Assembly: GCA_048938855.1 (NCBI GenBank)
Contig: JBHLLT010000015.1
Coordinates: forward strand, 10,833 to 74,832
Origin: Promethearchaeota archaeon
GTDB lineage: Archaea; Asgardarchaeota; Lokiarchaeia; Sigyniarchaeales; SOKP01
Reading direction: 5' to 3'
DNA: 64,000 bases
Part shown: positions 2,172 to 25,165 of the stretch, one piece after another
How the letters are laid out: each line of letters opens with the position of its first letter
How positions within the stretch are numbered: the first letter of the stretch is position 1
Notes under the pieces: generated by a model
The model's input: only the letters and a program-made list of their open reading frames with translations
The model's database searches: none
What the model was told of the DNA's origin: nothing
Program-made: the position numbers and the translations under genes

Positions 2172-4136
2172 ATGCCAATAGTACTGGGTATTTTGTTCCA
2201 TGGTAATTTTCCTTTTTCTATGCATTATACTATTGCTTATAATAGTTGTTATAAGCATTTACCAATTATTTTACGAGAATTCCCTGAAATACCAGTGAAT
2301 TGGCATTTATCTGCAACACTGTTACAACAATTAGCATGGAAGAATCCAGAAACCTTGAAAATCTTTAGTGAAGGTTTAAATAATAATCAATTTGAACTTC
2401 TGGGTTCTTCATATGCTCAGAATATACTTTATATTTGTTCTGAATGGGTAAACAGGGAACAAATCAAATGGAATCGTTCTATAATATATAAGTTGTTCCC
2501 AGATTTAAAATTCCTGCATGGTTATTGGAATCCTGAAAGAGTTTTTTACGAAGATCTAGTTAATTTACTGGTAGATTATGGTTATAATTACACATTGGTT
2601 GAAAGTGATATTTTGGAGAGTGCATTAGCAACAAATAATAAAACGGCTGATTATTTATGGAAACATAAAATAAAAGATAAGGAGAAAAATTTCTATTTCT
2701 TTCCTGATAATCAAAAATTAAAAGAAAATGTAGACACAGTGATTCAAACAGGTCAAGTTGATGAATTTATTAAATTCTTAGATAATAAGATGGAGTCTGA
2801 TTCCGATAGATTAATAATGTGTTATGCTGAAGATGCCGAAGTATCAGGTTTCTGGCAGATAGCTAAAGGTTTGGATTATAAAAAAGCTCATAATAACTTG
2901 AGATTATTATTAAATGAATTGATGGAGAATGACTGGATTGAGGTTAAACTGTTATCAGAGATGATCAAAAAAGAGAAATCATTTGAATTAGGAACAATAC
3001 CTGCTGGACAAGCTACTTGGATGATAGAAAGTGTAAAAGTAGATGGCTATAAAGATTGGTTTGATTATGTGGAAAAAGCTCCTGAAGTACAATACTATAA
3101 AAAATATTATGAACAAAGAGAAAATCAATTGAAATTACTCCCAAATAATAAGAAAAAAAGAAATCTTATGAAGGAATTATTATCTTTTTATTTATCTCAG
3201 CAATTTGAATTTGGATGTTCACCTGGTTCCTTTGGTACGTTAGATACGCGCTATTTGATGAATGTACCAGGGATGCAGTTATGGGATGATCGTATAACTT
3301 TTGACATAATTTATGACTGGTTAATGTTTGATAAAAAGAATATGAACACGCCTAATTGGAAATTTCGAGGTTCAATGCCAACAATCGAATGGTCTACATC
3401 GAAGTGGATTTGTCAATTTAATCCATTCGGTGGTAGATGTACGTTTTTGGTGAACAAAGATAAAGATTCCATTTTCTCACCAAATCCTTACTTCTCATCA
3501 CAAGATAGAAACGTGTTATTTAATAATATGCCCTATCTGAAAGTTCACATTAATTATCTTGATATTGAAGAAAAGTTAAATTATCATGGGAATCTCTTGA
3601 TGGATAATTGTTATGTTAATAGTAAACCGATTGGGAGTTTAGAAACTTATAAGGTTGAATTAAAACAGAAGAGTAAAGAATACATTGAAAAGAAATCTCT
3701 AAAACATACTTATTTTAACTCTTTAATATTACCCAATAAAAATTCAATATTATTTTGGTATTCGGAGTCAGGAATATTATTAACAAAAGAAATACGTGAA
3801 TATGAGTCTAACTTAAGGATAGATTATAAAATTCGAAATTTATCAAACGATTCTAAAAATATCAAATTTTCTATTACAAACGAATTTTCTCCAAATCCCG
3901 TAACAGTGCTTGATTATGGACGAGATAGTCTAGATATGGTAGAATCGCACGAAAAGAATGGAATTAAGATTGTAACTAGGAATAATCTTACTAATTCTGA
4001 AGTTACAGTTATTAGTAATGTGGAACCTAATAGAATCAAGAAAGTTCCTTCTGAATTTGCTTTACGACACGAATTAATCTATAATTTTACTCTCAATGAA
4101 GGTGGGATAAAAGTTATACCACTCACGATTTTATAA
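2172..4136 (+). CDS. Glycoside hydrolase family 57 (alpha-amylase/4-alpha-glucanotransferase-like)
   Basis: N-terminal FHGNFP, FELLGSSY, WNPERV (nucleophile Glu) and EDAEVSG (acid/base region); C-terminal beta-sandwich; divergent from the sugar ABC genes. Confidence 0.8.
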   Translation: MPIVLGILFHGNFPFSMHYTIAYNSCYKHLPIILREFPEIPVNWHLSATLLQQLAWKNPETLKIFSEGLNNNQFELLGSSYAQNILYICSEWVNREQIKWNRSIIYKLFPDLKFLHGYWNPERVFYEDLVNLLVDYGYNYTLVESDILESALATNNKTADYLWKHKIKDKEKNFYFFPDNQKLKENVDTVIQTGQVDEFIKFLDNKMESDSDRLIMCYAEDAEVSGFWQIAKGLDYKKAHNNLRLLLNELMENDWIEVKLLSEMIKKEKSFELGTIPAGQATWMIESVKVDGYKDWFDYVEKAPEVQYYKKYYEQRENQLKLLPNNKKKRNLMKELLSFYLSQQFEFGCSPGSFGTLDTRYLMNVPGMQLWDDRITFDIIYDWLMFDKKNMNTPNWKFRGSMPTIEWSTSKWICQFNPFGGRCTFLVNKDKDSIFSPNPYFSSQDRNVLFNNMPYLKVHINYLDIEEKLNYHGNLLMDNCYVNSKPIGSLETYKVELKQKSKEYIEKKSLKHTYFNSLILPNKNSILFWYSESGILLTKEIREYESNLRIDYKIRNLSNDSKNIKFSITNEFSPNPVTVLDYGRDSLDMVESHEKNGIKIVTRNNLTNSEVTVISNVEPNRIKKVPSEFALRHELIYNFTLNEGGIKVIPLTIL

Positions 4137-20827: not shown

Positions 20828-23329
20828 ATGACTGCAAAGAGTTTAAGCCTTTATGCAATAGCAAAATATGCCAATCAGGAACTTTTATTAGAATCTTTAC
20901 TTCAAGCAAAGGGTTCTTTTCAATCATTGTTTTTAGAAAAATTTCGAAAAAGACAAAGAACTCTTAAAATTAAAGTAATTGCCACAAAAATATTATACTC
21001 TGTTATCTTTGGGATTTTACCTGTGATGTTGATTTTTACATATATAGAAATCATCCAAAGCGCTGATTTATACCCATTTTCACCCGATAATATTATATTT
21101 ACGGGCGTAATTTTTTTTGGGTTGTATTTTGTTCTGCAGTTTTTTAATTTTTTCCTCATGGGTATATTAGAGTCCAGTATGGTGATGTCAGGCTTAATTT
21201 TCAGCTGGTTCGAAACATTACCTATTCCAAGAGAAAAACTAAGGAAATTAGCATATTTAACGATTTTTCGAACTTTTGATCTACCGATTATATGCATAAT
21301 ATTTGGATTTCCAATTACAATGCTAATACAAACTCAAAATATTTTAATTTTTTTTATCAGTCTTGGTATTTCCTTTGTAAATATACTATTTTCATTCGAT
21401 TTACTTATATTATTTGGGGAAAGACTGCATCGCGTTTTATATTCTAATAAAACTAGCCCTAAAAAAGCTCTTTTAGTTAGATTAATCAACATATTAAGTT
21501 ATATTGCCGTAATACTTGGGACTATTTATATTATCCAATGGGTTTTTGGGTCAATAGAATATGTTTTTAGTACAATGATCTTATTTCCTCATGCTCAATT
21601 GCTAAATATAATCTTTAGTACACTTCCTTATCCATTTAATCCTAGTTATATATTGTCATTAGCAATTACTCCAACTCTTCTTTCAGTTAATTTATGGATT
21701 AGTACTTTTGTTGGATTAGGACTTTTTATTATAATAACCTATGTAGTTCATAGGAAAACGTCAAAAACTCTCTTTAAAATTACCAACTATAGTTCGCTTA
21801 ACTCTCGACAAGTGTACCAGAAAGAAGAAATCGAAATTAAAATCAAGATACGTACTTCTATTGGTGCATTTTTAAGAAAAGATCTTGCTGTAGCATCTCA
21901 TGATATTAAAGTCTTTCTCTCATTAATTATGCCTATAATATTAGCATGCATATTCACTTTCTCTTTTAATATTGGATTAGTTTCTAGTCCTATTATATTC
22001 GAAAGGGATGTTATAATCTATTGCTTAGGTATATTATTATTTTGTCCTATAATCTCTAGTATGCTGGTTTATGGAATATCTTATATAGATTTGTCAGGAG
22101 AAACTGTTTTGGCGGGATTACCTATTATTCCTCGAGATAGAGTTAAAGCTAAATTAATCCTGATGATAATCCTTCAGACTATAGCTTTAATTTCTCCTTC
22201 TTTAATGTATTTATTCACTCCAAAATTTTCTAGTTTCTTTTTTGCTACTATTATAATGGCTCCATTTGTGTGGATTTTTCTTCTTTTGACTTATGAATTA
22301 AAAATTTATTTTTTTAACAAGTTTGGAAAGCGTTATGTAATTGGTGATATAAATCCAGAGAAAAGAATTGTAAAATGGGCACTAATTATTTGCGTACAAT
22401 ATGTAATTAATTTTTGGATTACATCTTTTGTGCTTATTTTTTTTATTAGTCAATTAACTTCTGTAATTGCTACATTTTATCTTATAATAACAATTGTAAG
22501 TGCCCTATTGAGTATTTTAATCCTAAATAGTATGTTTCCAATTATTCGAGAAAGAAGATCTAAGCATTTGAAAGACACAGGTTCAACCTATTTCACACGC
22601 CATACATGGGTAAGTCTATTTGTTTTATTTGTTTTATACAATATACATTTATATATATCAATATTTTTAACTAACATTTTTGCTCAACCAGTTTATATTG
22701 ATATCTTTAATGATTATTATTTTAATGCTTTTAGCTTAATTGGCTTACTTTTACTTAATTTGAGTTTTGCTCCACTATTTTTTATCCTAATTCCAAAATA
22801 TTTAGGCTTACCATATGGAAAACGACCATTACGTCAATACTTACCCAATATTAAAGCAGGGTGGTTAATAAAATTCTCAAAAATTCTTCTTTGGTCAATA
22901 TTAGGATTAATACTATTCTACGTTACAACATTTATAACAAATATAGGGTATTTAATTTCACCTGGTATTATTGCTATTAATATGATGGTATTTATAGTAA
23001 TTCTAAATACAAATTTTTCTTTTTGGTCAGAATTATTTTATAGAGGAATAGTTTTGACTATACTTCTAAAGAACAATAGGAAGAAATCAACTGCAATCAT
23101 ATTAAACGCATTAATTGTTTTAATATCTTTTATAATAATTCAAAATTTATTGTATCGCCAACTAATTATCTTTTATTCCCCTTTTAATTATTTAATAATG
23201 TTTCTTCAGCAAGCTTTACTAGCCTACTTATGTATTAAAACAAAGAGTATTTTTCCAGGAATTATAATAAGAGTGGTTTTAATAAGTATACTTAATTTAA
23301 CAATAGTTCCTATTTTTGTTATATATTAA
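20828..23329 (+). CDS. Large membrane protein: ABC-2-type permease-like region fused to a degenerate CPBP (Abi/Rce1) domain
   Basis: About 20 TM; TLPIPR and FLRKDL permease-like motifs; C-terminal FWSELFYRG and KTKSIFPGII resemble CPBP motifs 1 and 3 without the catalytic residues. Confidence 0.6.
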   Translation: MTAKSLSLYAIAKYANQELLLESLLQAKGSFQSLFLEKFRKRQRTLKIKVIATKILYSVIFGILPVMLIFTYIEIIQSADLYPFSPDNIIFTGVIFFGLYFVLQFFNFFLMGILESSMVMSGLIFSWFETLPIPREKLRKLAYLTIFRTFDLPIICIIFGFPITMLIQTQNILIFFISLGISFVNILFSFDLLILFGERLHRVLYSNKTSPKKALLVRLINILSYIAVILGTIYIIQWVFGSIEYVFSTMILFPHAQLLNIIFSTLPYPFNPSYILSLAITPTLLSVNLWISTFVGLGLFIIITYVVHRKTSKTLFKITNYSSLNSRQVYQKEEIEIKIKIRTSIGAFLRKDLAVASHDIKVFLSLIMPIILACIFTFSFNIGLVSSPIIFERDVIIYCLGILLFCPIISSMLVYGISYIDLSGETVLAGLPIIPRDRVKAKLILMIILQTIALISPSLMYLFTPKFSSFFFATIIMAPFVWIFLLLTYELKIYFFNKFGKRYVIGDINPEKRIVKWALIICVQYVINFWITSFVLIFFISQLTSVIATFYLIITIVSALLSILILNSMFPIIRERRSKHLKDTGSTYFTRHTWVSLFVLFVLYNIHLYISIFLTNIFAQPVYIDIFNDYYFNAFSLIGLLLLNLSFAPLFFILIPKYLGLPYGKRPLRQYLPNIKAGWLIKFSKILLWSILGLILFYVTTFITNIGYLISPGIIAINMMVFIVILNTNFSFWSELFYRGIVLTILLKNNRKKSTAIILNALIVLISFIIIQNLLYRQLIIFYSPFNYLIMFLQQALLAYLCIKTKSIFPGIIIRVVLISILNLTIVPIFVIY

Positions 23330-23885: not shown

Positions 23886-24282
23886 TTAATGAAAATGTTT
23901 CTTCTCATAAGTTTTTATAGTAATTATTTCTAAAATTTGTCGGACTCTTTCAACTTAAATGAAAGAGGATCATTTATCCTCTTGTGACAAGTACAGATTC
24001 TTTTTATGATTGGGAATTAAGAATAAGAACTAAACCCCATTATCTTAAAAAAAAGAAAAAAAGTAAAAATGAAAATTGTTTAGGTATCTCTACTGAGGAC
24101 TTTAAAAAATACATAAAATTATGGAAAAGTAAAAATATTGCATTCTAATTCTTTTCTCAAATTCTTCTCTTTTCTCACTCATAATCCTGTTTGCAATTGA
24201 AAAAGAATTTTGCTTTTTATAATAATTATTGTTCAATAATAATAGTTAAGATTAGAAGTATTAGTGGTATAGAAAGAAGGGA

Positions 24283-24627
24283 CGAGAAGTTGCCAATGAA
24301 TCCCAGAAGGTTTTCATAAGCAAACGGTATTGTTATTTTTCACTTTCATGAAAAAATTACAAAACATTAAATCATTTTGCGTCATGAAGAGAAATACCAT
24401 ACAATGAATAATTTCTTACTCGTCGGATGGTGTTATCGTTTGATAACCTTACCAATTCTTGCGAATCAGCCAGATCGAACACCGAATATAAACCAAATGG
24501 CTTACATTTTAGTTCAAATTATGCTTTTACACATAATCTCTTTCCATATCGCAACAGATTACCTTGCGGTGCCAATGCTTTGAGGTAACAATACCTCTTC
24601 TCGACGTTCAAACCGTTAGGATTGAAC
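24283..24627 (-). ncRNA. Unclassified ~345-nt highly structured non-coding RNA
   Basis: Nested long-range helices (24283-89/24597-603; 24326-35/24586-95; 24377-81/24550-54) and at least 7 local hairpins with GCAA, GCAA, GAAA and UAAC tetraloops; G-U pairs form only on the minus strand; TATA box upstream. Confidence 0.7.
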
Positions 24628-24649
24628 AATATATGTTTTGAAGGATTCA

Positions 24650-24657
24650 TATTTAAA
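24650..24657 (-). promoter_or_regulatory. TATA box for the structured RNA
   Basis: TTTAAATA on the minus strand, ending 22 nt before the first paired base of the RNA (24627), consistent with archaeal TATA-to-TSS spacing. Confidence 0.5.
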
Positions 24658-24787
24658 TCACACTATTAAGGGATTATTATATATTTTTGTCGAAGAAAAC
24701 AGTTTATGTAATTTTTATGTCGGAGTTTTAAAACTTGGTTTTTTCAACATAAATACGAGTCATAAGATAAAAAAAGAAGGAGGAGAT

Positions 24788-25165
24788 TTAGAATGGCCAT
24801 ATATTTATTGTTACGTTCAATAGCGTACTTAGTAACAGAACCACAAGAACATATAACAGAAAAGCTATAACAGTTATTACAATTGCACTTAGAAATCCTA
24901 CATTATGGCTTACACAAATTAGTATCCAAGTTACTATTAAAGCAACTAACCAAGCGACCCAACCTTCTAAAAACAAAAATACTAAAGCAAAAGTGATAGT
25001 AATTAAGAAGGCTGTTAAAAAGACATTACCAAAATTAGTATGTTGTGCTTTACTAAAGAAACTTAAAGTAAGTTTCAAAAAAATTGTTATTACCAACAGG
25101 ACTATAAGGTAAAAGACTAAAAACCACATAACTTCTTCAAATGTTAGTAAAATCATTTTATTCAA
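24788..25165 (-). CDS. Small membrane protein (4 TM)
   Basis: Hydrophobic 125-aa ORF. Confidence 0.65.
   Translation of the reverse strand: MNKMILLTFEEVMWFLVFYLIVLLVITIFLKLTLSFFSKAQHTNFGNVFLTAFLITITFALVFLFLEGWVAWLVALIVTWILICVSHNVGFLSAIVITVIAFLLYVLVVLLLSTLLNVTINIWPF

Follow-up and report, generated by a model that had tools for sequence, protein, structure and literature searches.

A modular family of stand-alone structured RNAs in Asgard archaea that is not catalogued in Rfam

Introduction

Does a short segment of an Asgard genome encode an RNA of its own, and if so, of what kind? Asgard archaea are the closest prokaryotic relatives of the eukaryotes, and to our knowledge almost no large non-coding RNAs have been catalogued in them beyond rRNA, RNase P RNA and SRP RNA. 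In the window, by which we mean the whole stretch of 64,000 nucleotides from a Promethearchaeota archaeon that was analysed, the original prediction placed an RNA of about 345 nt at 24283-24657. The analysis supports a non-coding RNA gene here, about 355 nt long and on the minus strand (Table 1), which stands alone and belongs to an Asgard family, uncatalogued in Rfam, of which it is a type A copy. The RNA as such is retained; its ends are corrected to about 24630-24276, and the promoter cassette extends to about 24722. The family is not described in the literature on Asgard RNAs within our coverage, which leaves out most subscription journals.

Results

Fold, strand and anatomy

The minus strand of a 371-nt stretch folds to a minimum free energy of -114 kcal/mol (z -8.18; 0 of 100 shuffles equally good), against z -3.59 for the plus strand in the same kind of comparison. 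The minus-strand bias is real, although the plus strand folds too, and the strand is fixed by one-sided changes rich in G-U, by RNA tetraloops and by the promoter. About 73% of the RNA is paired. The long-range helices and hairpins listed earlier were all found at their minus-strand coordinates, and the tenth pair of a helix described as 10 bp is not conserved (paired in 8/33); the 11-bp helix P3 and the 5-bp helix P5a were absent from that list. The segment is, as had been claimed, GC-richer than its flanks, its GC content being 0.33-0.365, compared with 0.285-0.32 on the upstream side and 0.245-0.27 on the downstream side.

The trunk is a stack of P1, P2, P3 and P5a with three three-way junctions, each carrying one side hairpin (H12, H11 and H4), and is preceded by the 5' hairpin H0. 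The strands of P1 are purine and pyrimidine respectively and near-invariant, and this helix is retained in types A and B and in the trimers described below, while two pairs of P2 show about 3 independent double changes each. H0 is dispensable, being missing in homologues L035 and L048, and H11 too has gone from some copies. The loops cap their hairpins stably, with GNRA prevailing in type A (26-27/34 for H8 and H10) and UNCG in type B. In seven copies (L050, L056, L059, L060, L062, L064 and L067) 22 nt are inserted in the 5' hairpin, resembling a local duplication of its own stem.

Table 1. Features of the type A copy in the window and of its promoter cassette
Feature	Position	Strand	Observation
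Type A RNA gene	24276..24630	-	ends placed by promoter spacing, conservation and pyrimidine tract
CGAC-plus-A-run direct repeats (two, 30 bp apart)	24722-13, 24692-84 (24684..24722)	-	homologue conservation
Core promoter	BRE-like TTAATAG 24669-63, 5-bp spacer, TATA box 24657-50 (24650..24669)	-	homologue conservation
5' hairpin H0, UAAC-type loop	24606..24627	-	94% paired
Closing helix P1	24605-24597 / 24289-24281 (24281..24605)	-	97% paired
Trunk helix P2	24595-87 / 24334-26 (24326..24595)	-	95% paired
Trunk helix P3	24583-73 / 24369-59 (24359..24583)	-	11 bp
Side hairpin H4	24570-61	-	GNRA loop in 26/34
Helix P5a	24560-56 / 24374-70	-	pairing in homologues
Head A	24376..24555	-	P5b/P5c close a six-way junction with five hairpins; 81-99% paired per helix
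Head A hairpins	H6 24538-17; H7 24516-24476; H8 24473-48; H9 24447-32; H10 24431-24396	-	
Side hairpin H11	24336..24355	-	variable; unit 3 of trimers is without it
3' hairpin H12	24290..24324	-	in 740-nt forms the arm is extended and bears two more heads
Pyrimidine/oligo-U tract	24262..24280	-	position conserved in homologues; probable archaeal terminator
68-aa antisense ORF	24377..24583	+	not a gene; intact in 2/34 homologues

Conservation of the structure

The fold of the window's copy alone was mapped on 34 homologues and changes were counted by parsimony on a tree, with 1000 controls in which partners were re-dealt among the paired columns. Type A shows 41.7 independent double compensatory changes where 8.2 +/- 2.9 are expected and the control maximum is 19, so the covariation on which the prediction was staked is present; type B shows 32.5 where 5.3 are expected. 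In the mapped fold 88% of the cells are paired, against 37-43% with the partners slid. An all-against-all, tree-corrected test of single pairs, which has low power, gave no significant pair in type A and one or two in type B, and the support from covariation is therefore at the level of the whole structure and not of each pair. The homologues also fold better on the same strand than on the opposite one, with median z of -8.0 vs -5.1 in type A and -6.9 vs -1.5 in type B. What is conserved is an RNA structure, not a protein or a position; the 68-aa ORF that overlaps it is disrupted in 32 of 34 copies.

Promoter and terminator

The promoter predicted upstream is there, its box being a TATA box of fixed position among the 72 copies (found in 69/72 homologues, at an identical distance to the RNA in 67, with the full motif in 66), and from archaeal TATA spacing transcription presumably starts near 24630. 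The 7-bp BRE-like element ahead of the TATA box is fixed as well. Both CGAC repeats are found in 52/72 homologues and at least one in 71/72, and they are probable dedicated sites for an upstream regulator. Within the genome the exact core promoter motif is unique and the paired CGAC motif has only one other occurrence; the idea that the promoter motif marks a regulon was rejected, as it is not common to the RNase P, SRP, tRNA or other promoters of the genome. The pyrimidine tract noted downstream does run from 24280 down, and its role is probably that of a terminator. Parts of 24000-24900 are contained in 24 metatranscriptome runs from 22 studies, a share of 0.20 being reached by two runs of one study. 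The 31-mers common to relatives are confined to the RNA and its promoter, and given where they fall it is at most plausible that these runs hold the RNA.

Known families

A search of the whole window against Rfam 15 was empty at the gathering score, which argues against a known Rfam family, and at E<=10 it gave chance matches only (E 0.44 and 7.9); types B and A+B, the trimer and the minimal forms had no match in Rfam 15. The absence of RNase P, SRP, tmRNA and group I/II motifs that had been read from the window sequence extends largely to the relatives. Among 77 aligned sequences neither CR-I (which forms the P4 pseudoknot with CR-V) nor the SRP54-binding motif of SRP helix 8 occurs (0/77 each), the T-loop motif is seen in 2/77 and the start motif of domain V in 4/77, ARAGORN finds nothing in the window, and group I/II introns have no Rfam match. 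Genome-wide, ARAGORN reports 13 tRNAs only, with one tRNA-Sec.

Neither the catalytic core nor the flanking exons of a group I/II intron or HYER were found, the element lying between promoter and terminator, and core motifs of hammerhead and hairpin ribozymes are only sporadic in the 77, with no Rfam match. Box C of the C/D box guide RNAs occurs in 0/77, in an RNA that is largely paired. No IscB, TnpB or IS110 gene, as would accompany a HEARO/omega RNA, reRNA or bridge RNA, is adjacent among the neighbours examined. In the alignments of type A, type B and the trimers no loop-loop pairing of at least 4 bp is kept in 80% of the sequences, and no conserved palindromic loop or guide was found. A candidate pseudoknot between the 5' loop and the 3' flank of P2 was rejected, being broken without compensation in many homologues.

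It would be hard to believe that the element is a structural feature of the DNA, or that it belongs to a known family from which it has diverged too far for Rfam to detect. The plus strand does fold (z -3.6), and Rfam models perform poorly on Asgard RNAs, the SRP RNA of this very genome (L042, contig 70 (C70), 155534-155862, E 4.8e-16) scoring 72.4 bits, under the Rfam archaeal cut-off of 96.5. The evidence that fixes the minus strand nevertheless speaks against a structure of the DNA, and nothing beyond chance was matched even at E<=10. Since the genome has that SRP RNA and a true RNase P RNA (contig C20, 134.9 bits), both on other contigs, the element is not a divergent stand-in for either.

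Modular forms of the family

Among the relatives the trunk is constant and the inner domain differs. Type B, of 260-300 nt, has a lengthened H4 and a different head with three hairpins, and H4/P5a is the point at which heads A and B are exchanged or fused. An A+B form of 668 nt unites, in a single frame, head B, an extra domain of several hairpins and head A; its loci (L043:2454-3121, L044, L233, L239, L242 and L250) lie downstream of an Hsp20 gene and ahead of a thioredoxin-reductase-like gene. Minimal forms of about 235 nt exist as well. At L062 two type B genes stand in tandem (2683-2979 and 3195-3491), each with a promoter of its own, and L185:2504-2568 is a 5'-only remnant that spans about 60 nt and lacks a TATA box, its genome having a full type B copy at another place.

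The largest form is a trimer of 740 nt, in which three diverged units, 46-59% identical, share one promoter. In the consensus fold of 13 trimers the units are nested, the 5' end of unit 1 closing with the 3' end of unit 3 and the 5' hairpins that were duplicated in units 2 and 3 re-pairing with each other. Pairs that join different units number 49; most are 90-100% canonical, and changes on both sides are seen in few of them. Folding the 13 trimers whole instead of as separate units gains 20-30 kcal/mol, although any longer RNA gains from being folded whole. As judged from these predicted folds, a single nested molecule is the most likely form of the triplicate. Two trimers from different genera, L183 (G068 contig 86) and L061, are 97% identical, which could reflect horizontal transfer or a misbinned 6-kb contig.

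Distribution

Homologues do exist. By BLASTN the element is found, usually as one copy per genome, in 56/161 genomes of the Promethearchaeia (Lokiarchaeia), all from the window's own family and nearly all from two genera. Profile searches, with sequence-only models and a 147-nt covariance model of head B with 18 pairs, which may miss remote homologues, raise the carriers to about 60 of the 161, essentially one family still, with one clear copy in a third genus. In a phylum-wide sample 13/25 members of the window's family carry the RNA, and it was found in none of the 125 Asgard genomes sampled from other families. Scanning all GTDB genomes for a pattern of the RNA gave carriers among MAGs of the Promethearchaeota/Promethearchaeia, and viral contigs gave 0 matches. 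Bacterial pattern matches (L125 and L143) were dismissed as chance, and carriers titled Hodarchaeota, Hermodarchaeota or Thorarchaeota do not widen the range beyond the window's own family, f1. The narrow and patchy range makes an ancestor of a eukaryotic RNA unlikely. Several genomes rated 100% complete, MAGs though they are, gave no match, and the RNA is therefore probably non-essential.

Genomic context

The cassette occurs in at least ten neighbourhoods of unrelated genes, those examined and in part annotated including polB, Hsp20, thioredoxin reductase, methyltransferases, a hydrolase, gelsolin, ArsR and unknowns. Its commonest site, with 24 loci in two genera, is directly behind the family-B DNA polymerase gene, in most cases 100-240 bp behind it and on the same strand. 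That proximity would suit a cis-regulatory element, a 3' UTR or leader belonging to an adjacent gene, polB in particular, yet such a role is highly improbable for an RNA that has its own promoter, is followed by a terminator-like tract and not by a gene, and changes neighbours between copies. In the window's genome polB directly adjoins its neighbour and the RNA lies on another contig, and a search for divergent copies behind polB left all 41 of 41 further polB loci without the RNA.

The promoter moves along with the RNA, and relocation thus takes place at the DNA level. It is unlikely, if less so than a cis element, that the RNA belongs to a DNA cassette that is selfish or mobile (a non-autonomous element, or an addiction or defence module) and moves among loci and lineages without benefit to the host. 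Sites are found both filled and empty, as with the polB site, empty in the window's genome, and with the window's own site, empty in G063 and G102; the neighbourhoods are many, some genomes have two loci, and the 5'-only remnant and the nearly identical trimers in two genera, which may be a matter of misbinning, would fit as well. Against this, most genomes have a single copy, the neighbours examined include no gene for a transposase, integrase, reverse transcriptase or nuclease, inspection by eye showed neither target duplications nor terminal inverted repeats, viral contigs gave no match, the travelling promoter excludes retroposition, and the cassette has resided long beside polB in two genera.

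In the window a 54-aa lysine-rich ORF without Pfam match (23984-24148, plus strand) is convergent on the RNA and has three paralogues in the genome, one about 3 kb behind polB. It was considered as the partner of the RNA and rejected, since it is also present at empty sites. Further off (20828-23329, plus strand) lies an 833-aa membrane protein with a C-terminal CAAX-protease-like (Rce1) domain.

Discussion

The homologues, the tree-corrected compensatory changes, the fixed promoter and the loss of the overlapping ORF together uphold a stand-alone, uncatalogued Asgard non-coding RNA, and the best explanation is a self-contained accessory RNA gene consisting of its own promoter, the RNA and a terminator. 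Transcription from the TATA box would give a stable RNA whose paired ends may resist exonucleases, and which could work in trans, as a platform for binding or as a decoy. The trunk and its junctions would then present a shape to a putative protein or RNP partner, while the type and number of heads would tune specificity and valency. We favour this trans-acting reading tentatively, at somewhat less than an even chance. No partner has been found and the reading is partly a conclusion by exclusion, a selfish element would explain the patchy presence and the relocation just as well, and the cross-unit pairs with two-sided changes in the trimers are few.

Since no pseudoknot, kissing loop, guide or catalytic motif was found to be conserved, we prefer a platform or decoy to a ribozyme. 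Of the functions originally guessed, a scaffold or platform fits better, and the lack of a conserved unpaired core and the exchangeable inner domain speak against catalysis. That the RNA represents a new class of ribozyme, with the junctions of the trunk as active site, is accordingly very unlikely, even if the size, the GNRA loops and the near-invariant bases of P1 and the P2 junction would suit one: the conserved bases are mostly paired, the few unpaired ones lie mostly in head A, a domain absent from type B, known motifs are not conserved, no Rfam ribozyme matches, and there are neither flanking exons nor a substrate.

ROOL, GOLLD and OLE form homo-oligomer or cage assemblies, which kissing loops and A-minor bridges stabilise (PMC12286853). 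The Asgard RNA has in common with them a stand-alone, large and covarying fold and, judging from near-complete MAGs, non-essentiality; it is moreover multi-helical, has no partner gene and has been triplicated in nature, so that the trimer could be the covalent version of an oligomer, and the conserved GNRA loops of type A could form A-minor bridges. An RNA-only homo-oligomer or cage is nonetheless quite improbable, as the alignments of type A, type B and the trimers show no conserved loop-loop complementarity, pseudoknot or palindromic loop, where ROOL-type cages use kissing loops (PMC12286853), and the loops of type B are mostly UNCG caps.

It is conceivable, if doubtful, that we have here an abundant archaeal RNA with stackable and interchangeable domains of 150-250 nt on a fixed trunk, its valency tuned by swapping and triplication, that works as a scaffold or an RNA-only assembly and forms a class without described counterpart. 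The natural series, from the minimal form of about 235 nt over type B (260-300 nt), type A (355 nt) and A+B (668 nt) to the trimer (740 nt), shows directly how a large RNA grows through domain swap and duplication, and it makes the questions of structure and partner testable with in-vitro transcripts.

Compared with known systems, the archaeal RNase P RNA (RF00373) and SRP RNA (RF01857) are alike in length, paired ends, own promoter and multi-branch fold, but their signature motifs are absent from all homologues, and the Asgard RNA is missing from near-complete genomes. HEARO/omega RNA, reRNA, IS110 bridge RNA and ORF-less group II introns are likewise structured, patchy and found at varied loci, whereas here no IscB, TnpB, IS110 or reverse transcriptase neighbour, no guide segment and no domain V was seen, and the copy is single. 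CsrB/RsmZ and adenovirus VA RNA are protein-sequestering or decoy RNAs. They offer an analogy of working only, being stable, paired and trans-acting, with repeated modules that raise valency; the Asgard modules are domains of 150-250 nt and not short GGA hairpins, and no homology is expected. The closest likeness in kind is to ROOL, GOLLD and OLE (PMC12286853), ARRPOF (PMC12990946) and the raiA motif, which are also stand-alone, large, multi-junction, patchy and apparently non-essential. These ornate orphan RNAs of bacteria and phages share with the Asgard RNA a low conservation of sequence and a high conservation of structure. They differ in that there is no sequence or covariance-model match between them, and the Asgard RNA has an archaeal host and promoter and a smaller monomer, of about 235-380 nt. 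Neither pseudoknots nor kissing loops were found conserved in it, viral contigs gave no match, and it has exchangeable heads and a nested triplication. We regard it as a new family, unusual in its modular design, among the large orphan structured RNAs, a loosely defined kind.
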